A stretch of DNA of 64,000 nucleotides from positions 5,518,001 through 5,582,000 of the forward strand of contig JBHGNT010000002.1 in assembly GCA_043228905.1 (NCBI GenBank). Direction: 5' to 3'. The notes beneath the pieces are model-generated. The model did no database searches and was not told where the DNA came from. It saw nothing but the letters and a program-made list of their open reading frames with translations. Position numbers and translations under genes: made by a program. This stretch comes from Azolla caroliniana (Eukaryota; Plantae; Polypodiophyta). How positions within the stretch are numbered: position 1 is the stretch's first letter; every line of letters begins with the position of its first letter. Positions 14,095 through 55,800 of this stretch are shown here, in pieces.

Positions 14095-14522
14095 TGTCAT
14101 GATATGGCAAGACTCGAACCCATGACCTTAGGTTATATAGGTCGATCTCTTGACCATTAGACCATCTATTGTAATGCGTAAGATATTATTTTCATTTACA
14201 TTTTATTATAGGAAATTAGTGTATATTCCAGATTTCTCTGGAACATTCTAGAAGCTTCAGGATTACTCCTGAAAACACTATAAAAGAGGGCACTAGGCAT
14301 TATGTTGAACCAAATTGGTTCAATGCCAGTCTTAAGCCTTTTAGCCACCATTGTATATTCTCTTCACATAATACATATCTTTCTTATCATCACTCTCTCT
14401 CTCTCTCTCTTTCTCTCCGTCTCGCTCACTTCTTCCTTCTCTCGAAGAAGTTCTACACCTCTCATAGTACTAATCCTTCATTTAGTACTAATTCCTTCTT
14501 TGTCTTAGTACTGTTCCTGACA
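14095..14522 (+). repeat. 5' LTR of element B
   Basis: Near-identical to 19323-19790 except for CT-tract length and a few substitutions. Confidence 0.95.
14241..14285 (+). promoter_or_regulatory. Heat-shock element (GAAcaTTCtaGAAgcTTC) plus TATA box in the B LTR
   Basis: Four alternating nGAAn units at 14241-14258, followed by TATAAAAG at 14279. Confidence 0.7.
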
Positions 14523-14639
14523 ATTTGAACCAATTTCTCTTACCTTCTGTCTCTCATTTCCTACTAATCTCTTATTCCTCTTTTCTTTCATCCCATGGCC
14601 ACTGTTAGCGCTGAAGAATATCAATCTGTTTTCTCGGAA

Positions 14640-17600
14640 TTTCAATGCTTGAAAGAGAAGTTCCATGCTTTGGAACAAGAAAACCAACAGTTGCTGGGGG
14701 ATCTTTAGCAAATCTCCTTAGAAAAGCAGCAAACGCAACAACAGCATGGGGAACTTGCGTTACGCGTGCAACAACTCGAAGCAACCATCGTAGCGATGCA
14801 ATAACAAGGGCCCGGAACACAAGGGATTCATAAAGAACCCAAGATTGGCCTTCCCACGAAGTTCGATGGAACGCAATTGCAGTTTAGAGGGTTCCTTAAC
14901 CAGGTACGATTAGTTATCCAAATGCATCCTTCCCGATATCCCACCGATGCATCACGAGTGGGTTTAGTAGGCACTTTGTTAAGTGGCTTAGCGTTGTCAT
15001 GGTTCGCTCCACTATTAGAAAAGGAATCTCCGTTACTCAACAATTTTGAAGAGTTTCTAGGTGAGTTTAAAGCATGTTTCGGAGATACTGACAGCATCAG
15101 GACCGCAATCAACAAAATTCGGCGATTACGCCAAGGTGACCGTCCAACCTTCGCATACGCTGCAGATTTTCGCCTACTCGTCGCCGATATCCCTTGGGAT
15201 GATTAAGCGTTGATGGAGCAATTCCGTTATGGTTTACGCAACGACGTCAAGGATTTACTCTTGACCTTCCCCGAAGAGCCAAAGTCCTTAACAAAAGCAA
15301 TCAGTCGCGCAGTGAGATGTGACAACCGCCTCTTTGAGCGACGTTCGGAAAGATAGCTACAGATGCCGAGGCCAAGATCAGAGCCCACCTACGCCTTAGT
15401 GGTAGCAAGACCTTTTCCGAGGGAGTCATATAATGCGCCTCCAGCGAATACTCCGACTCCGATGGAGATTGACACTACACGTCGTTGAGGGCCATTATCC
15501 GAAGAAGAAAAGCAGTGACGCCGTACAAATCGACTATGTCTTTACTGCGGTGGACCAGGACATATCGCAATTAATTGCCCCCATAGGCCAAGAAGACAGG
15601 TAAACCAAATAGTCGCTAGTTCTAATTGTACTAAACCCAAGCCTATTTCAGTAGGGATATCTGATAGTCCTAATAGTACTAATAGCCCAGATCTAGCGAA
15701 CAAATTTGATGTACTTAGTCAGTTAGAAGAAGAGTTAAACGACTAAGTCCAACCAAAATAGGAGCCGTTTGGTTGGACAGCCCTAGATCTGTGCAACCCA
15801 TTAGTGGTTCCATTCCCTCTAAGCAAGTTAGTGATGTGTTCGTAGCCCAAGTAATAGTTAGTACTAAAAGTACCCCTCCAGTACATGTCCTAGCACTCCT
15901 AGATTCCGGAGCTAACTCTTGCTTTATGGATAAGAAATTTGCTCAAGCTCATAAGATATCCCTAAGAAAACTTTAGTGTCTAGCCTCTGTAGTAGTCATT
16001 GATGGACGTCCCATTGCTTCCGGAAAAATCATAGAAGAGTTAGAGCCCATTAATATTGTCCTAGATAACTTAGCATGTGTAGTATCATTTAATATTATTA
16101 GTATCCCAGAACATCCTATAGTTTTAGGATTACCGTGGTTCAAGTTACATAACCCAGACATAGATTGGAGAACAAGAGAAATCCGGTGTCGACAAACCCA
16201 AGGGTCAACTCAGAAGATGACAACCATTTCGCTACGTCAGTTGCGTAAAGAAGGGCACAAGGAGGAAATGTTCCTCTTTGCAATATCAGTAAACCCCTCC
16301 AGCACCACTAAAGAAGAATCCACCGTTCAACTTCCCGAGAGGTATCGTCATTACGCCGATGTGTTCGATAAAGTACAAGCCAACACACTTCCTCATCATC
16401 GACCGTACGATTGCCCCATCGATTTACAACCGGGAAAAGAGCCGCCATGGGGACCGATCTACAATTTGTCACCAACCGAGTTGGAAGTCCTTCGGGCCTA
16501 TATCGAGGAGAATTTGGAAAATGGTTTCATTTGGCATTTGAAATCTCCAGCCGGCGTGCCCATTTTCTTCGTCAAGAAAAAAGATGGATCGCTTCGTCTC
16601 GTTGTAGATTATCGTGGCTTGAATAAGGTTACAATCAGGAATAGGTATGCTCTTCCCCTTATCTCAAGTCTTTTAGAACGGATCAATGGTGCCAGGTTCT
16701 TCATGAAGATCGACTTACGGGGAGCATATAACCTCGTACGGATCCGACCAGGAGACGAATGGAAGACTGCGTTTCGCACCAGATATGGGCACTTCGAGTA
16801 TACGGTCATGCCGTTCGGCCTCACTAATGCACCGGCAGTCTTCCAGCACATGGCTAATGATATATTCCGAGATCTATTGGATGATTTTTTTATCATCTAT
16901 TTGGATGATCTACTGGTTTATTCAAAGACCCAAGAAGAACATGATTCTCATGTACTATTAGTACTAAAACGATTTCGAGAACATGGTCTGTATGCAAAGC
17001 TGGAAAAATGTAGTTTCGGGTGCAACCAAGTGGAATTTCTCGGCTACATCATTTCGTCAGAAGGCATCTCCATGGACCCAGCTAAGGTCAAAACGGTGTT
17101 AGAATGGCAGACTCTGCGTTCGGTGTGGGATGTGCAATGCTTCCTAGGCTTTGCCAATTTTTACCGGAAGTTCATACAAGATTACTCAAAGATCGTTCTA
17201 CCTCTCACACAACTTACCAGGAAGGGACAACTGTTCATCTGGTCTGAAAAAATGGACATGGCTTTCGAGAGTCTTAAAAAGGCATTTACATCGGCTCCAA
17301 TTCTAGCTCATTTCGATCCGGAAAAACCATTCATTATCGAAGCTGACGCATCGGATTTTGCATTGGGGAGCATTCTGTCACAATAGGGGAATGATGAGAA
17401 GCTACATCCTGTGGCTTTTCACTCACGCAAGTTTGACGCCGCTGAAATCAACTATGAAATTCATGATAAGGAGCTATTGGCAATAGTGGATTCTTTTATG
17501 CAATGGAGGCATTTTCTGGAGGGATCCTCTCATCCAGTCACCGTATTTAGTGACCACAAGAATCTTGCCTACTTTCAGGATGCTCATGTGTTGAATCGAC

Positions 17601-19330
17601 GTCAAGCTCGGTGGGCCCACTTCCTCACACGTTTCGACTTCAAAATTACATATCGTCCAAGGAAACACCAAGGGAAGGCAGATGCATTATCACGACATTC
17701 GTATCTAGCACCCCGTCCCGGCGAGCTAGCTTTCGATAACCAAAAACAAGTAATCTTGGGACTGGCACGACTACAAGCAACACAGATCTTTGACATGCCC
17801 ATGGATTCCTGCGTTATCGATACCATACGTGAAGACTTGAAGACAGATGCGTTCGCCCAAGCTATACTAGCACAAATTGATCCCTCTCGAGCGTCGTGTT
17901 CATAGTCACAACCACTAGGTATGGACTATCGACAATTCAAATACCATGATGGATTACTCTTCTTTAAAGAACTTTTGTATGTTCCTAATGGTTCTTGCCG
18001 CCTTTGAGTAGTACAAAACTGTCATGACACATATACAGCTGGGCATTTTGGTAGTACTAAAACATTACATTTAGTATAACGATCATTCTGGTGGCCCTGT
18101 ATGCGACAATTTGTCGAGGATTTTGTTCGGACTTGTGATACATGTTGCAGAGCGAAAATGCCAAGGCATCATCCATATGGTTTATTAGAACCATTACCAA
18201 TTCCAAGCAAGCCGTGGCAATCCATTGCTCTAGACTTCATCACAGATCTTCTAGTCTCTAAGGGGTTCAATGCGATTCTAACGGTGGTCGATCGATATAC
18301 GAAGATGGCTCATTTCTTGCCATGTACTAAGGAGATCTCCAGTGAAGATACTGCCGAAATTGTCATGCGTGAAGTATGTCGGCATCATGGACTTCCCGAT
18401 AGTATCATCAGCGACCGTGGACCCCAGTTCGTGTCAAAATTTTGGAAGCACCTTTTTAACATGCTCAAGGTCACTTGTAACCTCTCCTCCGGCTACCACC
18501 CACAAACCGACGGCCAAGCTGAACGAACAAATCAAATGCTGGAGCAGTATCTGCGGTGCTTTCTCAGCTATCATCAAGACGACTGGGCAGATATTCTCCA
18601 CTTCGCTGAATTTGCCTATAACAACTCTATCCACGCATCCACTAAAGTTACGTCATTTTATACTTATACGGGATGTCACCCCCGGTGGCGTGTACTTGAA
18701 ACCCCAGAGGTGTCCACAAATCCGTGCGCGGAGGATCGTTTGGAGCGGTTACGCAAGATACAAGCGTATTTATCTACTCATCTCTAGCAAGCTCAACAAA
18801 CACACAAGGTCTACGCGGATCGTCATCGACTTCCATCCAGTTTTAATATTGGAGATCGGGTGTGGCTGCTATAACGACACATCAAGACTACTCGCCCATG
18901 TGAGAAGTTGGATTATCGGCGATTAGGTCCTTTCCGTATTATTGGACAGATTAATGATGAAGCTTTTCGTCTCGATCTACCTCCTCAACTTCGGATACAT
19001 CCGGTGTTTCATAGTTCTCTCCTCGAACCCTACCACAAGAGCACCATCCCAGGACGTCTTATCCAACCTCCACCCCCGATCGAGCTTGAAGATGGGCCGG
19101 AGTACGAGGTTGCCACCATCCTTGATTCCAAGATTGTTCGCAACAAGCTCTACTATCTAGTCGATTGGCTAGGCTATAATCCCAGCGAACGTACTTGGGA
19201 ACTGGTCGAGAATGTGACCAATGCTCGTGCTCTTCTTGAAGACTTCCATCGTCAATATCCACACAAACCAGGTCCTCAATCCAAGATGACTCGTGACACT
19301 CGTCCATTTAAAGGGGGGATAGTGTCATGA
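14640..19330 (+). pseudogene. gag-pol of element B
   Basis: gag ends at TAA 15744-46. pol is in the -1 frame: ORFs 15773, 16217-17386 (RT), 17411, 18101 (IN) and 18908-19330 (chromodomain). Confidence 0.92.
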
Positions 19331-19639
19331 TATGGCAAAACTCGAACCCATGACCTTAGGTTATATGGGTCGAGCTCTTGACCATTAGACCATCTATTGT
19401 AATACGTAAGATATTATTTTCATTTACATTTTATTATAGGAAATTAGTGTATATTCCAGATTTCTCTGGAACATTCTAAAAGCTTCAGGATTACTCCTGA
19501 AAACACTATAAAAGAGGGCACTAGGCATTATGTTGAACCAAATTGGTTCAACGCCAGTCTTAAGCCTTTTAGCCACCATTGTATATTCTCTTCACATAAT
19601 ACATATCTTTCTTATCATCACTCACTCTCTCTCTCTCTC

Positions 19640-19688
<49 letters not shown>

Positions 19689-19790
19689 CTCGCTCACTTC
19701 TTCCTTCTCTCGAAGAAGTTCTACACCTCTCATAGTACTAATCCTTTGTTTAGTACTAATTCCTTCTCTGTCTTAGTACTGTTCCTGACA
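19323..19790 (+). repeat. 3' LTR of element B
   Basis: Direct repeat of 14095-14522. Confidence 0.95.
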
Positions 19791-20455
19791 CTAGAAGGCG
19801 AAAATCTGCAGCATAAGCGAAAGCAGGACGATCTCCTTGTCGTAATTGCCAAATTTTGTTTATTGCGGTCCTCATACTATCGGTGTCTCCAAAGTTGGCT
19901 TGGAACTCATTAATAAACCCTTCAAAATCTTCTAATAATGGTGAGTGCTTCTCTAGGAGTGGTGCAAACCATGCTAATGCGGTACCTGTTAACAAGGTAC
20001 CAACTAGTCCCACATGAGCAACATCAGTTGGGTAATAGCTATGATGCAATTTAATCACAAGTCGTACCTGATTTTAAAAATCCATGAAATTGAGACCTTG
20101 TACCATCAAACTTGGCTAGTAGACTAATCTTTAGTTCTTTCGGTGAAGTTTGAACTTCCACTACTTGTCGTTGTAATAGAGTAGCCTCCAATTGATGCAC
20201 CCGTTGAGATAACTCTTCAAATTGTTGTACCTTCTCAGCAGTTACTTGTTGTAGGTCGCCTAGCAATCTTTGATTTTCTTGCTCCAGGGCCACGAATTTG
20301 GTTGTTAGCATATTGAGTTAAGAGAGAACGCGCATATATTCTTGCTTGCTGACGGACTCCATAGTTATGAGAGAGATTTGCTAGATTCGCTTGAATAAGT
20401 TTAAGAGAAAAAGAAGAAGAAATTGGAGAAGAAGAAAAGAATATTCGGTTCAAAC

Positions 20456-20471
20456 TATCGATACGAATGAG

Positions 20472-20529
<58 letters not shown>

Positions 20530-20843
20530 CAAGAAATGGAAAAAGACTGGTGTTGAACCGAATGAGTTGTGATGAAGAATAGACACCTATTTACAGGTCC
20601 TTATGGAGTATTCTAGAATGTTCTAGAATATTTATGATATTTAATATAATTATGAATATCCTAGAATATTCTAGAATATTTATGATATTGAATATAATCA
20701 TGGAATATCCTAGAATGTTCTAGAATACTTTAAATATCTTGTAATAACTAATTATTATTAATATCTGGTTAAAGGTCTAACATATAGACCAAGACGTCGT
20801 GGGCTCGAATCCTTGTAAGGCCAAAATGTATGTCTCAATGACA
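20456..20843 (-). repeat. 5' LTR of element A
   Basis: Begins TGTCATTGAGAC on the minus strand and is homologous to 10515-10933. Confidence 0.85.
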
Positions 20844-20903
20844 TATGCTATATAAATGGAAGATCTGATTACATTTTGTTATTATCTTTTTTTCTTCGAA
20901 ATC

Positions 20904-21003
20904 NNNNNNNNNNNNNNNNNNNNNNNNNNNNNNNNNNNNNNNNNNNNNNNNNNNNNNNNNNNNNNNNNNNNNNNNNNNNNNNNNNNNNNNNNNNNNNNNN
21001 NNN
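20904..21003. other. Assembly gap (100 N)
   Basis: Run of N. Confidence 0.99.
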
Positions 21004-23609
21004 AGCGGAAATGCTGATGCGGGACATTCCGGAAGAGAGGCGTCTTGCCGGGTTCCCTCGAGTGGCGATGTCGAGCATCCATGCGGAGGTGCTCGAGGTA
21101 CGGGCGGAGAGTCGTACCTGGGAGGAGTTCGAAGGCCGACTCCTAGAGAAATATGGGCTGGACGACACGCTCCGGCTTTCGAAACGGGACTTCATGGAAT
21201 GGGTGGAGTCCCCTGGCAAAGGAAGAAACGCGTCGGCACTCCTCCGGGAGTTCGAAGAACGCTTTGCGCGCCTTTCGGCGCTTGACCGAACTATCCTGGA
21301 TACGAGCCGGGTCCTACTGTTCGTCAAGTCGGTGGACGAGCGGGACCGGGATCAAGTCGCCTCCTTGCTGGAAACCGAAGACGGGTTGACAACCGACTGG
21401 GCTGCGGTTAAGAGAGTCTGTGGCCATTTCGACAAACGGCGAGAATGGGCTGACAACGGGGCGGCCGGTGCGGGCTCTGTTACAGCAAGGAGGCTTGAAC
21501 CGGCGCCACAAGTACAAAGGGAAGAAACCCGGGAATGGCTTGAAACCGCTCCGGCTTCGACCGGCATGGTCAATGGCTCGTCTGGAGGAGCAGCGCTAGA
21601 GGAGTTGACGCGGGCGATAAAGGACCTCTAGATCGCCCAGACTCGAAGGGAAGGCGGCGAACCGGCTCGTGACCGACGGCCGGCAGCGGGGAACAGGTGT
21701 ATGTGGTGCGACGAGGTCGGCCACATTCGGAAGGACTGCGGCGATTTCGCAGAGGCGTTGAGAAACCGGGTGGTGTACCTGTGGGAAGGCCGGGTGCACG
21801 CTGGTGACACCAGGAGGGCCCTGAGCCGAAACGACGGGCGAGGAGGTATGAAGAGACTGATGGAAGACGCAGCGGCCCGACACGTGGAGGCCATCCACTA
21901 CTCAGCGTCGGTCGGTATTCGGGTCGGGGGCAGCGAGACCCGAAAGGAGAGCAAAGACGGTTTCTGGTCGGCAATGCTGGAAGGCCTCGCCGGCGCGCGA
22001 CTGATGAAAGATGAAACGGACCACGCTGAGAGACGGGTCCGGGAAATAACCGGGTGGAGCGATCCGGTCGAGGAGAAGAGGGGCTTCGTAGAAGCCGCTT
22101 GCCGGAACTACGAGGCTCTGGTAGAGGAGAAACGAGTGGGGAAAGCCGGAGCGACCGGGCCCTCACAACGGTACGAGACCCGATTCGGACAACAACGGAA
22201 CGATGCCGGTGGGCCCAGCCCGCAAGATAACCCCAGGAAGGGCGGGTACCGACTGGGGACAGAAATAGAAAGGACTACGGACCTACGAAAGGTCCTAGAA
22301 GAACGGGTCCTCGACAGCAAAGTGGAGCTGTCATTACGGGAGGTGCTAGGGATCGCCAAGAAGGAGTTCCACGACTCTATTGTAGACTTGGTGAAACGGA
22401 AGAGACTGTCGACGGAGACAGAACCGGAAAGACCGGTGGAGGTGCGGACGACGCACATCGACGACTCGGCGCTGGAAGATGAGTGGGCGGAGAGCCACTA
22501 TTCGAGGCCACACTAGGCCCGAGCGACCACAGAGACCCCGGTAAAGATCGGAGATGTTCGGGAACTGGTGGTGGCATTGGTGGACCACGGTTCGGAAATA
22601 AACCTAATGTCCATGGACTTCTATAAGAAGGGGAAGTGGCCGATCAACACCAAGCACGGGTGGAAGATACGGGCGGTGACGCGTGCCACCGAGGAACTGC
22701 ACGGGGCCTGCCCGAATGTGCGAGTAAAGATCGGCGACGTCGAGATTGACCAGCACTTCTTCGTACAGGAGACGTCCTCGCATCCGGTCATATTAGGGGA
22801 ACCATACATCACGGCAGCTCGAATGGAGACCAAGGTGCTAGACAACGGTTCGGCCTACGCAAGGGTCAAAAGCCAGGACGGGCGCCATTCGGTCCAATTT
22901 CTGACCGTGAGACCGAATCATGAGAGGAACCGCGAATCCCTCGGTGGCGAGAACCGGGAGGATTTTTAGAGAGGGCTGCCAAGGCGTGGGGCCGAGACAG
23001 TCCGGACACTCGGGAAAGACCCTACGACTGTACGATAGGTAGAAAATTTTGCTTCTCCAACAATGGAGGGTGTATGATAGTCGGCATCGTCGGCCGAGAA
23101 AAGACAAGGGCGGAAGTGCGACTTCGAGCGTGCGGAGTTCTTGGCCCGGACGAGGAAATCAGCGGAGCCGTGGAGACGGTCTCCTTCGACGACACCTTGG
23201 GAATGCTGAGGAACGTAGCCGGAGAAGACCTTAACGAAGACCGGACGATACCGGTATGTTCCGAAGAGATGTACGAAGTCATCGCGAACTTCAGTCGGGG
23301 GCTCGGGTCGGATCGGACGGCCCGAGTTAGCACGAAGTACAAGACTGTGGACCGGAAGGTAAGGTCAGTCGCGGCACCCTTGCCGAAGGGCAGCGAGTCC
23401 CGAATCCGAGGGGTGGCGTCGGACCCCAGTTTACGAGATCCGGCCTGCATAGGACACACCTTCACCGACGGAACGCTCCGGGAGCTCAAAATCGGTGGGG
23501 GCGGGTTCCTACTGCCGGCGGAGGAAAACCAGTTTCGGAAAATGCTGGAAGGCATGGGAAAGCCTTCGCATTCTCGCCGGAAGAAATCGGGTGCGTAGAC
23601 CCGACGATC

Positions 23610-26408: not shown

Positions 26409-26481
26409 AGGCTGGACAGGTTTTCTCCGTCCCAACACAATTTGGCGCATGCCGGTGGATGCGCGGTTAGGTGGGGGCGGA

Positions 26482-27023
26482 TGTCGTGAAGAAAACCGTC
26501 CACGAGCGGAATCGGTGCACCGGAGCGTAGAAACCGACTCTTCATGCACGTGCGACTTAAGGAGATCCTAGGTAGATTCGGTAGGCAGGGAGTAAAGGGG
26601 GAACGGCTCCTTCCTTGCCTATAAAAGGAGGGAGACGAGGAGGGTAGAGGAATCGCGGAGAGTCGAGGACGAAGTGTTGTCGGATTGGGCGCGAAGGCTT
26701 CTCTCTCTCTCTCTCTCTGGTTCGCAGAATCCATAGCTTCCTTCTGTGCAGGTTTCGGGAGGCTCGCGCTGCTCTGAGGAATGCCCGAGTGCTTCCGGCA
26801 GCACCTCTAACCTGTTCCTGTCTTTCTGTGCGTTTACGAACAGGCATCGGCATCTGTCCGCCGGCCTGTTCGGTTGTAACCGACTTCGCGTTTTGTTATC
26901 TTTGTGTTCTTGTTGTTTGTCTTGGCAATACATACATACTTTCGTGTCTTTCTGTGTGGTTGTCCCATTCGCGTCTTTGCGTCGAAGGGCCGTGTCCTTG
27001 TGAATCTACGCTCGCACGTAGTG

Positions 27024-27079
<56 letters not shown>

Positions 27080-27142
27080 TCTTCGGTACAGGACCCCCGA
27101 GGTCCCGCCTCACTCCACGCATCCGCGAGGAATACCTCGATA
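26482..27142 (+). repeat. 3' LTR of element C
   Basis: Starts TGTCGTGAAG after the PPT and is homologous to the reverse complement of 31987-32644. Confidence 0.9.
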
Positions 27143-28327
27143 GCGGTCCGTTTCATCTTTCCTCAGCCGCGCGCCGGCGAGGCCTTCCAGCATTGCCGAC
27201 CAGAAACCGTCTTTACTCTCCTTTCAGGCCTCGCTGCCCCCGACCTGAATACCGGCTGACGCCGAGTAGTGGATGGCCTCCACGTGTCGGGCCGCTGCCT
27301 CTTCCATCAGTCTCTTCATACCTCCTCGCCCGTCGTTTCGGCTCAGGGCCCTCCTGGTGTCGCCAGCGTGCACCCGGCCTTCCCATAGGTACACCACCCG
27401 GTTTCTCAATGCCTCTGCGAAATCGCCGCAGTCCTTCCGAATGTGGCCGACCTCATCGCACCACATGCACCTGTTCCCCGCTGCCGGCCGTCGGTCACGA
27501 GCCGGATCGCCGCCTTCCCTTCGATTCTGGGCGATCTGGAGATCCTTTATCGCCCGCGTTGTCGTAGTGTATTTTGTACACTACGTGAAAAACGTATATA
27601 GTATTAGATTCAATAAAAAATGAAGAAATAGAAGAAAATAGCAAAATAAATGGAACATGCATAGGGCAAGATTCGAACCTTGCACCTCCATGTTAATAAT
27701 GTAATGTCTTACCATTACACTAGCATTTCATTAGTGTTAAAGCATAGATGTCCCACATAGAAAGCTAAATTCACGCTAGGATAAACATTAGAAAAACGCA
27801 TAACAAAAGAAAAAGTTACACATACACATCTAGCATGCATGATAAAAAACGCACAAGTTAGAAAAAAAGCATGATCACTTTAGATAAAGCATATAGTCTA
27901 TCTATAGGAAAAGCATGGGGTCTATAGTTAGAGAAAAAGCATGGATTACTAAGACTTCCTCATCACTACATAAGGATGGGAAGCACAATGTAATTGTGTG
28001 TGAAAAATATTTGGAAACTGGATATGTTTCTAAAAAACACCAATTAATAAACTATACTCGTGTGATTCACGAGAATTCTATATCATTCTCTTTCAACCGA
28101 AGTTTATATTCTTATATTCATATTGATTAATCTAATACAATACACTCGTGGGATTCACGAGTTTGCTATAACTCTTTCTTACAACATATTTATATTCTTA
28201 TTAGCCTTAAAACTCTCCTCTTCCTAGTCCAAAACCTCAGTGGTTCCCACCCGACTCACGCAAACGATCCGGAGCCGAAAGGCACGACACAGTTGGTGAA
28301 CCCGACGTGAAGGCGGGTGGCAAGGAG

Positions 28328-29611
28328 ATGGAGAATCAACAAGAGGCGATGAACATGATGATGATAATGTTTGAGCGGATGCAACAAGAACAACGTGCGA
28401 TGTCGGAGATGAAGGCGGCAGTAGAGCGGCTTCTGCGACGAAACGGGGAATTCAACGGTAAGGGTGTGTCACGCTACCTACATGAATATAAGGCGGAGAT
28501 GATGCAATATCGGATACCGGAAGGATTGCAAGTGATATCCTTTAGTCGGGTGGCCTCGGACGAACTACAAGAGAGAATCCACAAGATACAACAACAAAAC
28601 TCGACATGGGAGTCCTTTGAAGAAGCTTTACGGGAGGCATATGACTATGAGAGATGGACGGGACGAGATCGACGAGAATTCGACGAATGGGTGGCGTCGG
28701 AGAAGACTCACCGAAGTGCAACGCAAGCGTTCCTAGAGTTCGAGCATCGTTTTGCTCGACTCTCGGAGCGGGAACGAAGATTGGTGGGAGAAGATAAAGT
28801 CTTAATGTTCGTAAGATCGATCGATCGAAAAGAAAGGATGGACATCGGGATCGAACTCGAAGATGATGACGGTGCGAACGGTCTTACCGAGGATTGGGCC
28901 AAAGTCGAAAGGGTATGCCGAAGACATGATGAAAGGAAGCTGAGAATCTCGTCAACAACGACATGGCCCATGAAGGATGGTCGATTGAGGAAAAACGATG
29001 AAGCCAATATGAAGGCCGAAATACAACATGATGGTACCACGGGAGAAAGAGTGGAACAAGACACCCACTCGTCTTGTGAAAGAACGATGGCGAAGGATAA
29101 GGCCGATAATTCAAGTGTAGAAGGAAATTTCGGGATACAAGTGCCCGAGACATCGGGTCAAAAAGGGGTAAGCATAATAGATGTTTGCATAATTGATGCA
29201 GATAAAGAGTGTGAAGCGGATGTGATTAAGGAGGTAGCCACAAAAGACGAAATCGAATCGGAGGTGGCTATGGACGAATCAATGGCGGATTGCCATATCG
29301 AGACTTCCCCACCACTGATTCCAGAGACTCCGGCGGTTGCGATCGAAAGGCAACGTGAGACCGAAGAGACGGAAGGTGGCGGAGAGAAAACGAATGTCGA
29401 AGCCGACGAATACGATGAAGAGATAGCCGAGAAGAATGCTAAGGGTGAAACTACGAAAGAAGGTAATACCGAGGATTCCTACCCACTAATCCTAGAGACT
29501 TCGGCAGTTGTGTCCGAGAACCAACGTGAGACCGGAGAGACGGGAGGTGGCAGCAAGAAAGGTAAAGTCGGAAGCCGGTTTGGATGGAAGGTGATCCGGA
29601 CGGGATTCTGA
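28328..29611 (+). CDS. Gag-like protein of element D with acidic C-terminal tail
   Basis: Open frame (longest start 28307, first ATG 28328). EFNGKGVSRYL, FEHRFARLS and NGLTEDWAKVERVC align by eye with C gag RFSGKDATKYL, FEERFARLS and DGLTTDWAAVKRVC. Confidence 0.8.
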   Translation: MENQQEAMNMMMIMFERMQQEQRAMSEMKAAVERLLRRNGEFNGKGVSRYLHEYKAEMMQYRIPEGLQVISFSRVASDELQERIHKIQQQNSTWESFEEALREAYDYERWTGRDRREFDEWVASEKTHRSATQAFLEFEHRFARLSERERRLVGEDKVLMFVRSIDRKERMDIGIELEDDDGANGLTEDWAKVERVCRRHDERKLRISSTTTWPMKDGRLRKNDEANMKAEIQHDGTTGERVEQDTHSSCERTMAKDKADNSSVEGNFGIQVPETSGQKGVSIIDVCIIDADKECEADVIKEVATKDEIESEVAMDESMADCHIETSPPLIPETPAVAIERQRETEETEGGGEKTNVEADEYDEEIAEKNAKGETTKEGNTEDSYPLILETSAVVSENQRETGETGGGSKKGKVGSRFGWKVIRTGF

Positions 29612-29830
29612 TCCGAAAGAAAGCCGAACCGGGTAAAAGACGATTTGGCCAAAAGACGAACCGAAAGAAAGCCGAACCGGGTGAAAGGGGATTCAACCGA
29701 AAGACGACCTGAAAGAAAGCCGAACCGGGTGAAAGGGGATTCAACCGAAAGACGACCCGAAAGAAAGCCGAACCGGGCGAATGAGGATTCGGCCGAAAGA
29801 CGACCCAAAAGAAAGCCGACCCGAAAAGGG
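29610..29830 (+). repeat. ~48-bp tandem repeat inside element D
   Basis: Repeated ccgaaagaaagccgaaccgggtgaaaggggattcaaccgaaagacga units. Confidence 0.85.
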
Positions 29831-32375
29831 GTCGACTCGGTCAAAACCGATCGACTGAGTCTGACTTGGCCGAACGCGAATATGGATGGAGGCCGACCTA
29901 GCCGAAAGCCGATCGGACGAGACCGATCCGGAAAGAAGCTAATCCGACTCAACCGGAGGTTGGACCGGTCGAGGCTGGTGAAAACGAGGAAAAGAAAGCC
30001 AACCGAAACCGAAACCGATAGATCGAAACTGGGCCGGAAGGAGACCGACTCAATCGAAACCGAACAACCGATTCCGATTCGTCCTAATATGAATCCGATC
30101 GGAAGCCGATCAAACCGAAAGTCGATCGGACGAGAGCGATCCGGAAAAAAGTCAAGGTTGATGAAGACAAGAAAGAGGCCAGTAAAAGACACTACCACGA
30201 ATGACAAGGGCCAAGAATATGACGAGAGAGAACAAAGAATATGGTGGATCGGATGGCGACAATGGTTCGGGTGGAAAGAATGGATGTGCTCCAAATGGAG
30301 AGACAAAGTCAACATAACAAGAGAAGTCGAGGGTACTACGAGCCGGCAACGAAACCAATCGGGTAGAGACCGGACGGAGGAGACTAACAAACACCAACAA
30401 CTTCGGCACATACCGGAGGATGTGCGGGTTTGGAGGGGGTGAGTGTCGTAGTGTATTTTGTACACTACGTGAAAAACGTATATAGTATTAGATTCAATAA
30501 AAAATGAAGAAATAGAAGAAAATAGCAAAATAAATGGAACATGCATAGGGCAAGATTCGAACCTTGCACCTCCATGTTAATAATGTAATGTCTTACCATT
30601 ACACTAGCATTTCATTAGTGTTAAAGCATAGATGTCCCACATAGAAAGCTAAATTCACGCTAGGATAAACATTAGAAAAACGCATAACAAAAGAAAAAGT
30701 TACACATACACATCTAGCATGCATGATAAAAAACGCACAAGTTAGAAAAAAAGCATGATCACTTTAGATAAAGCATATAGTCTATCTATAGGAAAAGCAT
30801 GGGGTCTATAGTTAGAGAAAAAGCATGGATTACTAAGACTTCCTCATCACTACATAAGGATGGGAAGCACAATGTAATTGTGTGTGAAAAATATTTGGAA
30901 ACTGGATATGTTTCTAAAAAACACCAATTAATAAACTATACTCGTGTGATTCACGAGAATTCTATATCATTCTCTTTCAACCGAAGTTTATATTCTTATA
31001 TTCATATTGATTAATCTAATACAATACACTCGTGGGATTCACGAGTTTGCTATAACTCTTTCTTACAACATATTTATATTCTTATTAGCCTTAAAACTCT
31101 CCTCTTCCTAGTCCAAAACCTCAGTGGTTCCCACCCGACTCACACAAACGATCCGGAGCCGAAAGGCACGACAGCGTCAACTCCTCTAGCGCTGCTCCTC
31201 CGGACGAGCCATTGACCATGCTGGTCGAAGCCGGACCGGTTTCGAGCCATTCCCGGGTTTCTTCCCTTCGCACTTGCGGTGCCGGTTCAAGCCTCCTTGC
31301 TGTAATAGAGCCCGCACCAGCCGCCCCGTTGTCAGCCCATTCTCGCCGTTTGTCGAAACGGCCACAGACTCTCTTAACCGCAGCCCAGTCGGTTGTCAGC
31401 CCGTCTTCAATTTCTAGCAAGGAGCCGACTTGATCCCGGTCCCGCTCGTCCACCGACTTGACGAACAGTAGGACCCGGCTCGTATCCAGAATGGTTCGGT
31501 CAAGCGCCGAAAGGCACGCAAAGCGTTCTTCGAACTCCCGGAGGAGTGCCGACGCGTTTCTTCCTTTGCCGGGGGACTCCACCCATTCCATGAAGTCCCG
31601 TTTCGAAAGCCGGAGCGCGTCGTCCAGCCCATATTTCTCTAGGAGTCGGCCTTCGAACTCCTCCCAGGTACGGCTCTCCGCCCGTACCTCGACCACCTCC
31701 GCATGGATGCTCGGCATCGCCACTCGAGGGAACCCGGCAAGACGTCTCTCTTCCGGAATGTCCCGCATCAGCATTTCCGCCCCGTAGGACGCCAAATACT
31801 TCGTAGCATCCTTTCCGCTGAAACGGCCGATCGTACCGACGACCGCCTCAATGGCTCTGTCGAGGGCACCGGTGCCCTCGCGTGTGCTCAATATCCGATC
31901 CATGGCCGAAGCCATGGCCTCTGCAAGATCCGACCCCCTCATCTTCTGCTCTTCTGCCGCCTCTTTCACGTCGGGTTCACCAGATATGTCGTGGTATTCC
32001 TCGCGGATGCGTGGAATGAGGCGGGACCTCGGGGGTCCTGTACCAAAGAGTAAGAGAGAAAGAGAAGAGACCCACTACGTGCGAGCGTAGATTCACAGGG
32101 ACACGGCCCTTCGACGCAAAGACGCGAATGGGACAGCGACACAGAAAGACACGAAAGTATGTATGTATTGACAAGACAAACAACAAGAACACGAGGACAA
32201 CAAACACGAAGTCGGTTACAACCGAACAGGCCGGCGAACAGATGCTGATACCTGCTCATAAACGCACAGAGGGGAAAGAGTAGGTTGGAGGTGCTGCAGG
32301 AAGCACTCGGGCATTCCTCAGAGCAGCGCGAGCCTCCCGAAACCTGCACAGAAGGAAGCTATGGCATTTGCAACC

Positions 32376-32412
<37 letters not shown>

Positions 32413-39005: not shown

Positions 39006-39008
39006 GAT

Positions 39009-40107
39009 TTGCGGCTCAGAAAAGAGCCTCCATGGGGGCCAATTTATAACCTTTCACCCACGGAGTTAGAGGTTCTTCGGGAATATATCGATGAGAACTT
39101 GGTGAATGGGTTTATCCAACATTCAAGATCTCCTGCCGGCGCACCCATATTTTTCGTTAAGAAGAAAGATGGTTCGCTTCGTCTACTCGTGGATTATCGA
39201 GGATTGAATAAAGTAACTATTTGAAACCGATATGCTCTACCATTGATTTCGAGCCTTCTGGAACGCCTCAATGGAGGTAAGTATTTCACGAAGTTAGATC
39301 TTCGAGATTCTTACAATCTTGTTCGAATTCGTCCTGGGGATGAATGGAAGACTACTTTTCGTACTCGCTATGGCCATTTTGAGTATACAGTGTGCGAGAT
39401 GTACAATGTTTTTTAGGGTTCGCAAACTTTTATCGCAAGTTCATCAAAGATTATTCAAAGATCGTATTGCCCCTCACTCAACTGACACAAAAGAATCGAC
39501 CATTTGTGTGGAGTATAAATGCAAACTCTGCATTTGAAGGATTAAAGCAAACATTTACATCCGCACCAATTTTGATGCATGTTGATCCATTGAAGCGCTT
39601 TATACTGGAAGTTGATGCATCCGACTTCGCACTAGGAAGCGTATTATCCCAAATTAGCAATGATGGCCAATTGCACCCTGTGGCTTTTCATTCACGGAAA
39701 TTCGAAGCTGCAGAAATCAACTATCAGATTCACGACAAAGAGCTTCTTGCCATTGTGGATTCTTTTCAACAATGGCGTCATTTTTTGGAGGGTTCGTCTC
39801 AACAAATCATTGTCTATAATGATAACAAAAATCTAACGTACTTCCAAAGTGCTCGAGTAATGTATTATTAGTTATTACAATATATTTAGAGTATTCTAGA
39901 ACATTCTAGGATATTCCATGATTATATTAAATATCATAAATATCTAAAATATTGTAGAACATTCTAGAATACTCCATAAGGACCTATAAATAGGTGTCTA
40001 TTCATTCATCACAACTCATTCGGTTCAACACCAGTTTGTAGCCCCTTAGCCTACTCTTTGTAATCCTTGCTCTCTTATAATATAAACTCTCTTTCCATTT
40101 CTAGTGT

Positions 40108-40154
<47 letters not shown>

Positions 40155-43500: not shown

Positions 43501-46500
43501 TCTAATTGACCGTCTCCAGGGAGCTCAGTATTTTACGAAACATGATCTCTATACTGGCTACCATCAAATTTGTATAAGTGAGGATGATGTTCCTAAAACG
43601 GCATTTCGTACACGCTATGGCCATTATGAGTTTTTGGTTATGTCTTCCCAATGCTCCAACTACATTTCAACAAGAAATGAATGACATTTTCCGAGAACAA
43701 CTTGGAAAATTTGTCGTTATTTTCTTGGATGATATTTTAGTTTATAATCGTTCATTACAAAAACATGCTAAACATGTCCGCTTTGTTTTACAAACAATTT
43801 TATGCGAAGATCTAAAAATGTGAGTTCTTCAAGAAATCAATTACTTATCTTGGACATCTCATAACTGAACGAGGAGTTGAAATTGATCCTTCTTGCATCG
43901 AGAAAATCAAGCTTTGGCCCACTCTTTGGAATATTTGAGAAGTTCGATTATTCCTTGGTTTTGTCAGGTTTTTGCGAAAATCTCTTCGTAATTACTCCCA
44001 ATTGACAACGCCGTTTACTGATCTCCTAAAAGGTCAAACACGTAAGTCTACAAAACCTATTATCTGGAATGCTACACTAGACCTCGCCTTTAAGGAACTC
44101 AAGGACCTGGTGTGCAAGGCTCCTTCACTTCTTTTACCTGATCCTTCAAAACCTTTTGAGGTTGAAACCGATGCAAGAGATTATGTTATAGGTGTTGTCT
44201 TATATCAAGATGGTAAACCAATAGCATTCGAGAGAAAGAAACTTGATTCTGCTCAATGTCAGTATACCGTTCAAGAAAAGGAGTTATTTGCAGTTATACA
44301 TGCGCTCAAAACATGGCGCCATTATCTTTATGGAAATCGCTTTGTGGTAACTATGGACCACGAGTCCTTGAAATATTTTTGTGACCAACAAGACCTAAAA
44401 GGTCGTAAGGCATGATGGGCTAATCTCATCCAGGACTTTGATTTTTCCATACGATATCGTAAAGGTTCCATGAACACTGTCGTTGATGCACTAAGTCACA
44501 TCCATGAAGTTAACATACTTAGCTTCACTAAAATGCCATCAGATCTTTATGATCGCCTTCGAGGAAAGTATCTTGATGACAGTTATTTTGCGAAATACTG
44601 GGCAAGAGTTCAGTCTGGAATAGACACCACCACATCCTCGAAGGAATACTTCCACATTGCTAATGGTCTGCTCTACCGTAATGGGAAGGTTTGTGTTCCA
44701 AATTTGCCTGAGGTCAAAAAGAGAATTCTTTTTTAATGTCATGATGCACCCTCAACAGGGCATCCTAGAATACATCGTACACTCATTCTAATCTCCACTC
44801 AATTCTATTGGCCTAAGATGCGCCCTTACATACATAGCTATGTGACTAAATGTCACCAATGTCAAGTTAACAAAGCCGCATGACTTTTACATCCCTTTGA
44901 CATTCCCAATAATAAGTGGGAAAGTATATCCATGGATTTTATTGTTAGCCTTGCTCGCACCCAAAAAGGCCATGATGCCATCTAGGTTGTGGTTGATAGA
45001 CTAACTAAAATGGCCAGATTTATTGCTACTAAAACCACAGTAATAGCTCCTGAATTGGCTTACCAATTCGTTGACGAGTGATTTCGTTTTTATGGGTTAC
45101 CGATGGATATTGTGAGTGATCGAGATCCAAAGCTTACTAGTGACTTCTGGACACAAGTCTTTAAGAAGTTAGAAACTACATTGAGCAAGAGCTCCATGGA
45201 TCATCCTCAATCCGATGGACAGACAGAACGAGTAAATCAAATTATTGAGGACATGCTTCAAGCATACGTTGGTACAAAACCAACAAAATGGGAACATTAT
45301 CTCCCAATTTTGGAGTTTGCTTATAACAACTCCAAGCATACGTCGACGGGATATAGTCCTTTTATGTTGATGTATGGTTTTCAGCCACGAGCCCCAATTG
45401 ATGTTAATATACATCATGATGAGTTGCGAAGTACACAAAACTTTCTTCGGGATATGCAAGATATGTTGCATATTGCACGAGATAATATAAAAAGAGCTCA
45501 AGATAAAGCGCGTTTTTATGCCGATCATCATAGGCAACCTCGTGTATTCAACCCTGGACAGAAGGTATTTTTACATGTACCTCACAATTCTAAGACATTG
45601 TCTAAGGGTACGTGCGCTAAGTTAGCCCCATGGTTTTGTGGACCTTTTACAGTCCTCAAACGCATTGGCTCATTAGCCTATCGTCTCGCTCTTCCCGATG
45701 GTGTTGAAATTCATCCAGTTTTTCATGTGAGTTGTCTAAAAGAACTTCTAGGTTCTTGCGACAATACAGTTACAACTAAAACTCTGGTTACTTCTAAAGA
45801 ATTATCTTCTAAACCACATGTACAAGGAAGAATTCTCAATATTAAAACAAAAAAATTATGTACTAAAGAAATTCGAGAATTTAAAATAACATGGATGGAT
45901 AAATCAATAAAAGATGCCACGTGGGAACGCGAAAATTCTCTCAGAACTACCTTCCCTAACTTTCCATTGCAAGAGTGCAATGTTTTAAAGAGGGGGAGTA
46001 TGTTATGGGCATGACGATATAATATCTTGTGGTGAGAATTTACCGTAGTATTCTATACACGTGGATAAGTGTGAGGGTTGGTTAAACGAGAGTGTAAAGA
46101 AAGGGAGGATTACTTTTAATCCTCAGGATTGAGACAACCCATTAGACCAAGTGTGAACTTGCCTGGGGCCTTGGGTATCGCTATAAATAAGAGGCCTAGG
46201 TACCCTCATTTCATCATCTTGTTGACTACGTGGAGACTCTGTCTTGTGGTGGGTCAACTCTTGTAGTTAGCGCGCCAGCACCAGGTATGACTCAACGCCA
46301 CGGTGGTGGTATGGGACGCCGATCGAGGCTGAAGTCCGTCTCGATCCCTTCTCTCAGGGGTGGTCGGGTGGATCGGCACCCTTCTTTCTCTCTCTCCTTT
46401 CTGTCTAGATCTATCTTTTATCCTTATTTTATGCTTACATTAGTTCATGTCTCTAACAACTTGCGTCCAACTTCGGTTAGAACGGCATCAAGTGAGCCAA

Positions 46501-47637: not shown

Positions 47638-49150
47638 TGTCAGGAATAGTACTAAAACAGAGAGAGAATTAGTACTAGAGAAGGGAAGTACTATTAGTAC
47701 TAAGAGGACGGACTACGTAAGACTCACGATGTCGTGAAGATCCGTCACTAGGCGCGGATCCCGAGGCAGAACCGCCAAGGTTCTGGACCAGAAGGATCGA
47801 AGTTCGCACCAAGCTTAGTGAGAAAGTATTTAGGATAGATTGAGAGAGAGAAAGAGATTAAGATTAAACGCTTGACTTAGATTGAGAAATATTGATATGG
47901 CCAAGAGAGAGAGAGAGATCGAGATTAAGATTTTAACTCTTGATTTAAGAAACAAGATATATCATCAATGAATTTTCTTCTCATTAATTTCTTCATTCAT
48001 ACATGGATCCATAATACATTTTCATCCATCCTTTTATAGATGCCCCCATGCATATGATGCATGTTTGCCATTTGGCGCTCGTGTATTACATGTGGTGCAT
48101 GATAACCATGTCACTCGTTTTAGCTCTCACACATAAGAATTTACATGTAAAAGTGCGATGATAGAAATATAATTTAAACTAAATATCTTGGCTTAGTGGT
48201 AAGCCAATTGACTCCTAACTTGGAGGTGCAAGGTTTGAATCCTTACTTGCCCTCCTTGTATATGTATATATATATATTTATATATTTATATATTTATTTA
48301 TCTAGTCGTCGAACGCCGGTTCACCGGGCGATGTCGTCGCCTCGTCGACGCCGGATGCCCGTCGGTTACCTGTGGCCGCCGCCTCGCCGGCCGGTTCGCC
48401 GGATGTCATCGCCTCGCCAGTGCGCCGCCAGATGTCAGTTCCACCAGCTCGCTAGCTCCGTCGGATGTCGGTTCCGCCGGATCACCGGTTGCCGGTGTGC
48501 CACCGTCGCTTTGCCGCCGAATCACCGACTCCATCGCCGGTCCAGTTTTAGTTGGCCAAAACCTTTACGAGTGGCAAGGCCACCTCCACTCTTAGTTCAA
48601 GTTACCTTGAACTCTCTATGCTCCACACATAGACACAAAGATAATAGCTTTTGCTCTACCTTATATATGATGAGAGTCGTATTTATCGTGCCTATGTGGG
48701 ATATCTCACAATTTTCTCTTTTTCTTTCGCAACTTCTTACCCACATAAGTTGACACTTAGATGTCTGTTTCTTATGTAGTAAAGTGCACCTCTCCAAGAT
48801 CTTCGTCTTTTGTAATAAGATATTAAACTTACTTAGAATTAGTATATTCACTATTATTGTTTTATATGATTGACATTTGATTTCGTACGTCTTATGTGAT
48901 TTTCACACCATTGCCGAAAATCTTCACGACAACGAGAGAGAGATAGTGAAGGCGAGAGAGAGAGAGAGAGAGAGAGGATGATGATAACAGATGATATATT
49001 ATGTGAAGAGTAAGTACAAAATAGCTATGAGGCTTAAGACTGGCGTTGAACCAATTTGGTTCGAAATAATGCCTTGTGCCTCTTTTTATAGTGTTCTCAG
49101 GAATAGTCCTGAACCTTCTAGAATGTTCCAGAGAAATCTGGAATATACAC
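47638..49150 (-). repeat. B-family LTR (truncated), split by a solo LTR
   Basis: 47638-47729 and 48932-49150 match the reverse complement of the B LTR (tgtcagga..., ttgaaccaatttggttc, ttctagaatgttcc). Confidence 0.8.
47730..48931 (-). mobile_element. Solo LTR-like insertion of the TGTCGT-ended gypsy group (orientation inferred)
   Basis: 12-bp terminal inverted repeat TGTCGTGAAGAT/ATCTTCACGACA. 4-bp TSD ACGA (47726-29 and 48932-35). Minus-strand TATA at ~48035. Confidence 0.8.
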
Positions 49151-52800: not shown

Positions 52801-55800
52801 AACTCGACATCTCAACTAACTTGGACCTGCTTTGTCCGGGGGTTATAACACTTATAACCCTTTTGCTCTTGAGCATAGCCGATTAGGATGCATTTTTCCG
52901 ATTTTGCATCTAGCTTCCTCCGCTTCTCATCCGGTACATGCACATATGCAATGCTGCCAAAGATCTTAAGGTGTCTCAAATTTGGCTTTCGCCCGAAATA
53001 CAACTCGTGAGCTAACACCTTGTCACCGATCTGATTCTGGATGTAGACAGCCGTTCGGACTACCTCCGCCCAGTAGAATTTGGGCATGCTCTTCTCCTCC
53101 AGCATTGCCCTTGCCGCATCAATAAGCGACCGGTTCTTCCTCTCGACAACACCGTTCTGTTGCGGTGTGTATCTGTAGCTGAACTCTCGCCGAACTCCCT
53201 TTTGCTGCAGATAACTATTGAATTGGCCGGAAAAGTATTCTTTTCCGCCATCCAACCGTAGGCATTTGATCTTACTCTCCTATTCCCGTTCCACCATGCT
53301 TTGGAGACTCCGGAAACACTCGAAGACTTCAATCTTCTGCTCAATGAGGTAGATCCATGCGTGCCGCGTATAGTCGTCGATGAAGGAGACGAAATATCGA
53401 CTCCCACCAAGACTAACATTCTGTGTCGGTCCCCACACATCCGAATGGATAAGGTCGAGCTTGTTACGGCTCCGGTTACATTCGGTAGGGAATGGAAGCC
53501 GGTGTTGCTTCCTAAGTTGGCAGGCTTCACATACTTGGGCCTTCCGGCCGCTGAACTTCGGCAAACCGAAAACAACTTGTTTCGTTTGCAAGTCTTGAAG
53601 CCTCCGGTAATTGACGTGGCCTATCCGCTTGTGCCACAGGTCAATGTCCAATTCGACCTTCTGTCCTTTTGCAAACAGAGCAGTGCCGACGTCATTGGTG
53701 TCGAGGATAAACATCCTCCCGTCTCTGCGCCCTTGTCCGACCGATACTAGGTTCTTCGTGATTGTCGGAACGTGTAATACGTTCATCAGCTTCCCCTTCT
53801 GTCTGACGTGGCTCAAAGGGACTTCTCTAACGTGCACGATTGGGTGAGTGTCATCTCCGGTTTCGACTACTCCTGGTTGATCCGGTTTCTCCAAAAAGGA
53901 GAACCACTCTTTGTGGCTCGTCATGTGGTTTGACGCTGTCGTAGTGTAATTCGCACACTACGTGAAAAATTACATTTTTGGTTTCTCCGGATAGGATATG
54001 GAGTACCCAGTGAGAAACGGATGAAGAAGGCCGGTGAGAGTCGATGAGAAATGGACGAAGAGGACCGGTAAGAAGGATCCAGTAAGAACCGGATAAAGAA
54101 AACTGACAAGAACCAGATGAAGCAGAACCGGCAAGAGCCGGATGAAGAAGGCCGGTGAGAGTCTCTCACTAGATGAAGAGACATATTTGTAAATAGAAGA
54201 AAGTATAAAATTATAGATTACATGTATAAGGCAAGAATCGAACCTTGCACCTCCATGTTAATAATGTTAAGCCTTATCATTATACTAGCGTATTATGAAT
54301 TTTAAAGTTATACTAAACTTTATCCCATGTAAAATTTCTAGACATGCATGGTACAAAAAGTTATTCATGTATAGACACTCGAGTTAGAAGAAAAGTTGAG
54401 ATAGAAAGCTAATCATGCACATGCAGTGTGCATGAAAACTAAAGATAGGAAAAGCATGATGCTTGCATGTGATAAACTTAGACTCTTCCAACACTATATA
54501 AGGAAGAGAGAAAGATGTATAGAGGTTGTTGATTATTTTACAAGGATTGGGATCAATCTAATAGATTCGTGGGATTCACGATTTTTTTTTCCATCTATTT
54601 CTCTCTTACATTCTAAGTATCAATTAATACACTATACTCATGGGATTCACGAGTTTCATATCTTCTTTCAAATATTTCTCTTTCTTGCAATCGATTCATA
54701 AGGAGCCTTATCTCATATTCTTCTTTCTCCTAGTCCAAAACCTCAGCAGTTCCCACCCGACTCATGCAACGATCCGGAGCCGAAAGGCACGACAATGCAC
54801 CGGAATCAACATACCACACTTCCTCCGATTTGGAAGTGGTCTTCTTCATGGAGTTCACCTCGTGCTTCATCACCAAGGTTGGCCTGTTACCGTTCTTGGA
54901 TCCTCCCGATCCCTTCGCGTAGTGTGAGCTTTGCCGGCCATCCTTGCTGGCCTTGCCGGATCCAAATTTGTCTGAATCGGCGCGTTTTCTCCAACACTCG
55001 CTTTCTTTGTGGCCTTTTTGCCACAGTACCAGCATTCCGTTGCAGTCTTCTCTTGCCGTCTTCCGATGCCACCATTACTCCCCCTGCTCCCAGAGGGTCC
55101 GGAACTGCTGTCACCACATTCTCTGTGCCTTTGTTCCTGGTCTTGTCGGCCGTCTCTATTGCGTGCCGACCCGCTTCATCCACCACGCCCACAGGACCGA
55201 TCTGATTCCCTATACAGCATCCGGTTGTCAATGGGTGCACTAGTTGACACACCGGCATGGTTCTCCTCTACAAGGAGCATCGACTGTAAGTCGAAAAATG
55301 ACGGCGTATTCTCCCTTGTACACACCGCCGTTCGGAACACCTGAACTTAGACACCAGGCCCCCAAGATAGACTTGTTCCATCTCGTCTTCCTCTACGGTA
55401 ATGTTTATAGAGGCAAGTGAGTCACATATCTCTTTGATCCGGGCCGTGTAATCTGCCACCGACATGTCCTTCTGTTGGACATTGCTCAACTCCTGTCGGA
55501 GTTGCAACTTCCGGGCAGTAGTGCTCGCGGCGAAAACCTTCTTCAGGTTTCCCCAAGCCTCCTTTGGCGTCTTGGCGTCTCGGATGTGGCTCAGCAGCTG
55601 GTCTCCGACACTGGTCGCGAAGCAGTACATCACTCTGCTTGCCGATTGTTCCCACACTGGGAAATCCTTATGTGCCACATCAGGCACTGTTTCGTTGACT
55701 CCTTCGATGAAACTCCAGTAGCCATGCCCAAGCAGGTACTGGTGCATCTTGTACGACCAAGATGCATAGTTGGATCTGTCGAGTTTCTCCACAGGGAGCG

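Follow-up and report, generated by a model that had tools for sequence, protein, structure and literature searches.

The stretch of DNA analysed here, called the window, comprises 64,000 nucleotides (64 kb) of contig JBHGNT010000002.1. It is a nest of retrotransposons with long terminal repeats (LTRs), with a gene for a short-chain dehydrogenase and one for a pentatricopeptide repeat (PPR) protein at its end. Several of the LTRs carry a short unit that resembles the internal promoter of a transfer RNA (tRNA) gene, with an A box and a B box at tRNA-like spacing. This unit, here called the cassette, lies in U3 on the strand opposite to that of its element. Its distribution, conservation and possible role are the subject of this paper.

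Antisense cassettes in two retrotransposon lineages

The cassettes were located with a generic pattern that was not trained on the window: an A box (TRGYNNARTGG or TRGYNNARYNGG) and a B box (GGTTCRANYC), 36-51 nt apart, with at most one mismatch in total. The pattern matches six times in the 64 kb, five times on the minus strand (14164-14111, 19392-19339, 27722-27670, 30606-30554 and 54287-54235) and once on the plus strand (48189-48241). The mean in 12 dinucleotide shuffles, used as the control, is 0.08, and a chance origin of the cassettes in the window is therefore excluded. All six matches lie in U3, antisense to their own element and upstream of its TATA box, as a sequence-only reading of the window had claimed, and all the strong matches in a profile search of the window fall within LTRs.

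The seven sites cited in that reading all lie where it had placed them, on the strands that it gave; the decayed cassette of solo LTR F, found by the profile search, had escaped it. Its site in element A is a homologous cassette by alignment, in the same place as in intact relatives, but fails the generic scan because its boxes are damaged, with C at tRNA position 54 of the B box in both LTRs and the A box deleted from the 3' LTR. Its plus-strand 'solo LTR' does have the cassette on the plus strand, but the LTR itself (E) is on the minus strand, 1202 bp long, Phygy-like and related to D. In the 3' LTR of element B the cassette reads GGTTCGAGTT; 97% of the aligned contig depth has the consensus base, and the change is therefore private to this copy.

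The carriers belong to two deep Ty3/gypsy lineages, the Tcn1-like chromoviruses (A, B and F) and Phygy-like elements (D, the D-type solo LTR or D-solo, and E), and not to several unrelated families as the sequence-only reading had it. The reverse transcriptase (RT) of B is 29% identical to that of C, a Phygy-like element of the window. A and B both have a chromodomain (PF00385) after the integrase, and their primer site is complementary to their own R region, with no tRNA primer binding site (PBS); in A the self-priming pair is ~20549-20561 with 20443-20453. These are marks of the plant Tcn1 chromoviruses as described in PMC6317226, and the label Tcn1-like rests on them. The integrase ends of A and B are 59% identical, and the self-priming layout is also visible in three of the metagenomic relatives described below (L003, L009 and L018). 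Solo LTR F has been split by the insertion of A, just ahead of its TATA box.

C, D and E are assigned as Phygy-like because of the 4-bp NCGN target duplications, found in all three of D, D-solo and E, and the tRNA-type PBS, which is the same in C and D; both features match the Phygy non-chromoviruses as characterised in PMC6317226, and C has no chromodomain. Named relatives of the C pol come from liverworts and ferns, and they carry no clade label. The gag of D is 37% identical to that of C. The PBS of C and D is putatively that for tRNA-Trp, the dominant Phygy primer. When D is aligned globally with D-solo and with E, the high A+T content inflates the result, and for E this alignment was set aside.

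Table 1. Elements and cassettes of the window (positions in the window; TSD, target site duplication)
Feature	Position	Strand	Remarks
Element A, decayed Tcn1-like chromovirus	10515..20843	-	self-priming site; TSD TATGT/TATGC
LTRs of A	~20456-20843, 10515-10930		92.8% identical over aligned bases
Cassette, 5' LTR of A	20763..20811	+	antisense to A; B box GGCTCGAATC; A box damaged
Cassette remnant, 3' LTR of A	10868..10903	+	B box retained, A box deleted
Element B, Tcn1-like chromovirus	14095..19790	+	5.7 kb (5696 bp); gag-pol and chromodomain; nested in A
LTRs of B	14095-14522, 19323-19790		97.7% identical; TSD CTAGA
Cassette, 5' LTR of B	14111..14164	-	B box 16 bp from LTR end; TATA box at 14279
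Cassette, 3' LTR of B	19339..19392	-	same A-box/B-box unit; last B-box base is a private mutation
Self-priming site of B	14524..14535	+	complementary to R region at ~14311-14322; without tRNA primer site
Solo LTR F, L003-type Tcn1-like	10308..10514, resumes 20844-20904	+	73% identical to L003
Cassette of F, decayed	~10327-10372		antisense to F
Element D, young non-autonomous Phygy-like	27560..31173	+	3.6 kb; gag; TSD GCGT
LTRs of D			730 bp each; 99.9% identical
tRNA-type PBS of D	28294-28311
Cassette, 5' LTR of D	27670..27722	-	generic pattern matched perfectly; TATA-like site at ~27968
Cassette, 3' LTR of D	30554..30606	-	antisense; from the generic scan
Solo LTR E, Phygy-like	47730..48931 (1202 bp)	-	TSD ACGA; U5 end D-like
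Cassette of E	48189..48241	+	antisense to E; A box perfect; invariant C of B box is T
D-type solo LTR (D-solo)	53937..54794	+	TSD ACGC/ATGC; sits in copia element
Cassette of D-solo	54235..54287	-	one A-box mismatch; TATA box at 54495

E is inserted into a truncated B-type LTR (47639-49150). The truncated B-type LTR at 48936-49150 has lost the cassette. An A-family deletion derivative (39391-40154), in which RNase H is joined directly to U3, has also lost it. Three further stretches bear some likeness to the cassette. At 6636-6683 (plus strand) there is a weak A/B-box cassette (profile E 0.087) that adjoins a CT repeat and matches none of the retrieved relative loci. A weaker cassette-like stretch (E 5) lies at 41149-41194 (plus strand), upstream of a gypsy gag, and a lone A-box word identical to that of B, without a B box, is found at 46139-46150 (minus strand) in an LTR beginning near 46005.

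Conservation of the boxes and loss of the tRNA fold

Relatives of A and B were collected by scanning metagenomes with an integrase-chromodomain alignment. This gave 79 loci, the best 79 of 568 confirmed candidates, and the 29 with a placeable 3' LTR were examined. In the accession series closest to A and B, which includes close relatives of A (L005) and of B (L007 and L045), 10 of 12 loci score at P<0.05 (with 200 shuffles as the control) for an antisense cassette within the LTR's first 160 bp, compared with one of the 17 more distant loci. The ten carriers represent nine distinct families, L004 and L006 being one family. In a FastTree analysis of integrase ends the carriers form two groups, with support of 0.97 and 0.98; the second also contains L009, which has no cassette, and has a sister group free of the cassette. 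In all the window copies and in the related carrier loci the cassette is fixed in antisense, and the sequence-only reading was correct in treating its orientation as non-random.

The integrase ends of the nine family representatives are 45-79% identical. Within their cassettes the pairwise identity is 0.78 for the A core, 0.79 for the B box and 0.64 for the GGTC of the variable loop, while it is 0.37 in the spacer, 0.45 upstream and 0.40 downstream, where 0.26-0.35 is expected from composition. The boxes are thus far more conserved than the flanking U3, which had been offered as a test in the sequence-only reading. The invariant C of the B box is present in all five metagenome contigs with an open integrase frame, and is lost in three of the four low-coverage copies with 2-4 stops.

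The spacing is indeed tRNA-like, the distance from A14 to G53 being 38-39 nt in 14 of 17 stretches (36-42 nt was allowed in the scoring). Pairing in the stems is a different matter. In 10 representatives the paired positions number 23/70 for the acceptor stem, 22/50 for the anticodon stem, 22/40 for the T stem and 26/40 for the D stem, against a chance level of about 40%, so that the D and T stems are somewhat above chance. Because the acceptor and anticodon stems pair at chance level, it is the motif and not the fold that has been kept. A functional tRNA gene is ruled out by this loss of cloverleaf pairing, by ARAGORN, which found no tRNA in the window, and by Rfam, which gave neither a tRNA nor a 5S match up to E 10. 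The boxes are of the tRNA type and not the 5S type.

The layout is that of a type 2 promoter of RNA polymerase III (Pol III), having an A box and a B box at tRNA spacing, with damage in the copies of A, E and F. The 45 nt upstream of the cassette are 67-93% A+T, and plant tRNA genes are reported to need an A+T-rich upstream region (PMC3082873). The TATA box lies 120-250 bp further in, with an A+T-rich stretch between. A downstream run of T is present in 10 of 16 correctly anchored stretches, at a variable distance (L018 was left out as mis-anchored). From B box to LTR end the distance is 6-40 bp in Tcn1-like LTRs, ~110 bp in D and ~690 bp in E; in this comparison the rows for D, D-solo, L008, L018, L007 and L045 were dropped or taken from raw sequence or motif scoring.

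The A box, the GGTC of the variable loop, the B box and the exact spacing make it likely that the cassette was captured from a tRNA gene or a short interspersed element (SINE), and to this extent the earlier suggestion of an origin from tRNA or SINE heads stands. However, the number of captures to be inferred is no more than about two, given the two lineages of carriers, and their independence cannot be shown because the spacer is near background (saturated) already within one lineage.

In the Phygy-like lineage, no block of U3 aligns better between D, D-solo and E than the cassette does. Contigs of four runs, from three organisms, pile up on the terminus of the D LTR and on its cassette; contig depth is here a relative profile along one LTR, and not a copy number. 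The summed depth on the cassette is ~6-25 times that of U3 on either side, and at least that of the LTR terminus. In run X1, for example, it is 484,000 on the terminus and 508,000-530,000 on the cassette, while U3 on both sides has 21,000-31,000; part of this peak could come from free SINEs. Loose contig ends on D represent relatives with another spacer and the same A box. In these contigs the D cassette is a shared island within an otherwise family-specific U3. The D cassette pattern has no match in the 79 loci and none in viral contigs. In the B family, A-box variants fall on positions 9, 10 and 12 among the variants listed (beside 29 further rows). Five contigs of run X10, tentatively an RNA run, align to the B LTR.

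It is worth adding that the LTRs of A and B have arrays of GAAnnTTCnnGAA between the cassette and the TATA box (14227-14260, 10708-10806 and 20606-20725), with 2-4 triplets in each. L004 has them as well; D and E lack them. The array region is also a depth peak in the B family. We take these arrays to resemble heat-shock elements.

A possible role beside the LTR promoter

On the basis of the position, orientation and spacing of the cassette, the conservation of its boxes and the loss of its cloverleaf, we propose with moderate confidence that it is a putative TFIIIC site that has been selectively kept, and that it may help to keep open, or to shield, the neighbouring LTR promoter for RNA polymerase II (Pol II). 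TFIIIC would bind the A and B boxes and position TFIIIB between cassette and TATA box, where the sequence is rich in A+T. With the Pol III and Pol II promoters thus back to back, a barrier poor in nucleosomes would arise and hold off silencing, or read-through, coming from the flank. If a short antisense RNA were made, it would be a by-product, and the cassette would be helpful but not essential. The proposal would explain the antisense orientation, because the B box of Tcn1-like LTRs is so close to the LTR end that, with the cassette in sense, the TFIIIB site would fall in host DNA; a sense cassette would also send Pol III into the TATA box, and therefore only an antisense cassette keeps the TFIIIB site inside the LTR. 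In yeast, TFIIIC sites are reported to affect neighbouring Pol II transcription and to need the invariant C of the B box (PMC4228148). The proposed mode is that of the yeast tRNA genes and extra-TFIIIC (ETC) barrier sites, whose boxes beside a Pol II promoter shape its transcription; those are fixed chromosomal loci whose effect was shown by mutation (PMC4228148), whereas the cassette is mobile, inside an LTR and a putative site of this kind.

A number of observations weigh against this proposal. In D-type contigs the invariant C is replaced by T in 26-30% of the depth, and 6-13% carries the change that this CpG tolerates on its opposite strand. Such an excess is in the wrong direction for selection, unless it is explained by a sense-strand G-to-A bias; the B stretch in run X1 has 13 places with G>A and 5 with C>T. 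Nor is the cassette conspicuous in depth within the B family, where no U3 bin of X1 is shallower than that of the A box and where this bin ranks among the shallowest in X3 and X11. T often replaces G10 in the A box, and the scored stretches have no plant CAA motif at -7 to -3. The LTRs of C and the other LTRs of the window, with limits judged by eye, have no match to the cassette profile, and among high-coverage relatives the cassette is absent from L009 and reduced to a B-like motif in L018. The region boundaries used in the identity comparison of the nine families were set after the alignment had been seen. Retention of the B-box CpG alone proves nothing, because active lineages retain CpG in general (the integrase of higher-coverage contigs has an observed/expected ratio of 0.72-0.93), and it was dropped as an argument for protection. 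Pol III genes of Arabidopsis in heterochromatin can be methylated and silent, according to PMC7544208. Finally, a Pol III complex that sat stably on the 3' LTR could stand in the way of the genomic RNA, an obstruction that might be relieved by occlusion from passing Pol II.

Other functions have to be weighed. The useful product might be a short antisense Pol III RNA, made from the 3' LTR through the end of U3 into the complement of the polypurine tract (PPT), which would tune plus-strand priming, copy number or small-RNA silencing. The first run of at least four T after the B box does lie just past the PPT complement in A3, L001, L005, L007 and L029. However, there is no common terminator: in L002, L003, D and D-solo the first such run is inside U3, 12-24 nt after the B box, and the scored stretches of B, L004, L008, L045 and E have none. 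The spacer and tail that would be transcribed are unconserved, and in D and E the B box, ~110 and ~690 bp from the LTR end, is too far away for the RNA to get to the PPT. We regard this explanation as unlikely.

Nor do we give much weight to the idea that the cassette is a neutral relic, a SINE or tRNA copy that landed in the ancestral LTR of each lineage and was carried along. Loss of or damage to the cassette in L009, L018, A, E and F, and the frequent C-to-T change in D-type contigs, would be expected of a relic. The survival of the boxes and their spacing would not, when spacer and flanks are near background across families that are 45-79% identical in protein, and for the Tcn1-like lineage neutrality is largely refuted by the sequence comparison.

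Alternatively, TFIIIC might attach to the linear cDNA at its end and help to tether the integration complex or guide it to a target, in which case the site would matter before integration. This accords with the closeness of the B box to the end of U3 in Tcn1-like LTRs, and with the fact that terminus and cassette are the common U3 modules of D-type LTRs. It is nevertheless improbable, in that the distance to the end ranges from 6 to ~690 bp and that a B box alone would suffice, yet the A box, the spacing and the A+T-rich upstream stretch have been kept. Pairing of the cassette in the genomic RNA with the D and T arms of a tRNA, like that of the 3' half of the bipartite primer site of Ty3, whose U3 is described as pairing with both the T arm and the D arm of the primer (PMC5371799), would account for the antisense orientation and the location in U3, but is very improbable: A and B are self-primed and have no tRNA primer site, positions 59-65 of the D primer (deduced from the PBS) match the cassette at three of seven places, two of them universal, only universal motifs of 6-9 nt are conserved, and pairing needs neither tRNA-exact spacing nor an A+T-rich flank.

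The cassette was also considered as a landing pad for insertions, an idea to which the window gives no support. A is inserted ~140 bp upstream of the A box of F, where 22-23 or 73 bp would have been expected, and at 39859 and 49150 the junctions resemble deletions.

The proposal of a TFIIIC site that shields the LTR promoter can be taken a step further. Two fern Ty3/gypsy lineages, as distant as their RTs indicate, may independently have captured and reversed a tRNA promoter, and would thus be self-insulating retrotransposons, in which TFIIIC and TFIIIB shield the Pol II promoter wherever the element inserts. We put this forward tentatively, as something possible and somewhat doubtful. If it is true, it would represent a cis-acting anti-silencing device that uses host factors, present over very many copies of a repeat-rich fern genome. 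A chromatin-protecting role of the cassette, if true, would offer a testable route by which retrotransposons stay active in heavily methylated fern genomes, and it predicts very many mobile TFIIIC sites. Over 7500 tRNA genes are predicted in Azolla (PMC13578239), and LTR cassettes might inflate the tRNA gene counts of ferns.

Comparison with known elements and neighbouring sequences

[quoted passage not shown] As described there, Helenus has tRNA-derived boxes A and B in both LTRs, as B and D have here; conservation is confined to the boxes, there is mostly no functional tRNA, and an origin by SINE insertion is proposed, with several independent births. Helenus elements are non-coding and 311-1263 bp long, whereas those of the window are 3.6-5.7 kb with gag or gag-pol; and the Helenus entries examined have sense-strand boxes near the 3' end of the LTR, proposed to drive the element transcript (PMC10886601), while the window cassette is antisense, in U3, and upstream of a TATA box that is retained. 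Selaginella is given as the sole plant case. The same paper states that 'not a few' LTRs in Repbase resemble part of a tRNA, its analysis being of TRIMs, and similar LTRs may thus already stand undescribed in Repbase.

The Cassandra and Ajax TRIMs have likewise captured an internal Pol III promoter in the LTR, and Cassandra is present in ferns, but they are non-coding miniatures with 5S-derived boxes A and C, and Pol III transcribes the element (PMC7215508, PMC10886601). In Cassandra and Helenus the Pol III promoter replaces the Pol II promoter of a tiny non-coding element. That large and abundant elements keep a tRNA promoter conserved and in reverse, next to a Pol II promoter that is intact, points to another use, most likely the protection of chromatin. 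Ty3 is similar in having a tRNA-related sequence in the U3 of an autonomous LTR element, and differs in that its U3 matches its own primer tRNA (PMC5371799), which the window cassette does not.

The Tcn1 and Phygy clades have been described in mosses and lycophytes, in accounts whose treatment of these clades mentions no Pol III boxes in the LTRs (PMC6317226, PMC2864245). A survey by polymerase chain reaction reported no Tcn1 in ferns (Novikova 2010, PMC2864245); A and B, by contrast, are Tcn1-like self-primed elements in what is likely a fern. In the literature covered, which does not extend to subscription journals, Repbase entries or bioRxiv supplements, there is no description of an antisense tRNA promoter in the U3 of autonomous-type plant elements, the related cases being Helenus/Ajax and Cassandra. 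Among viruses, the U3 of foamy viruses contains Pol III cassettes that produce defined microRNAs, and HIV-1 has a tRNA-like stretch in U3-R. The cassette described here is real, conserved and unexplained by a known family, and a role in chromatin is plausible from its sequence.

Other features of the window may be noted briefly. In D, the gag is followed by a charged repetitive open reading frame (ORF) with 48-bp repeats in place of pol (28211-30442), with no Pfam match. Between 32665 and 35750 there are long ORFs, two of which were scanned without a Pfam match, followed by an LTR-like stretch; this is possibly the accessory region of another gypsy element. The named full-length homologues of the short-chain dehydrogenase are 54-58% identical in Adiantum and 53% in Ceratopteris, and most seed-plant matches are at 44-52%, with one at 55%. 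The highest of these identities are to fern proteins, which makes a fern the likely host. At 8713-9056 there is a decayed fragment of a bacterial-type small-subunit rRNA (E 6e-9, under the gathering score), which is probably an organelle insertion.

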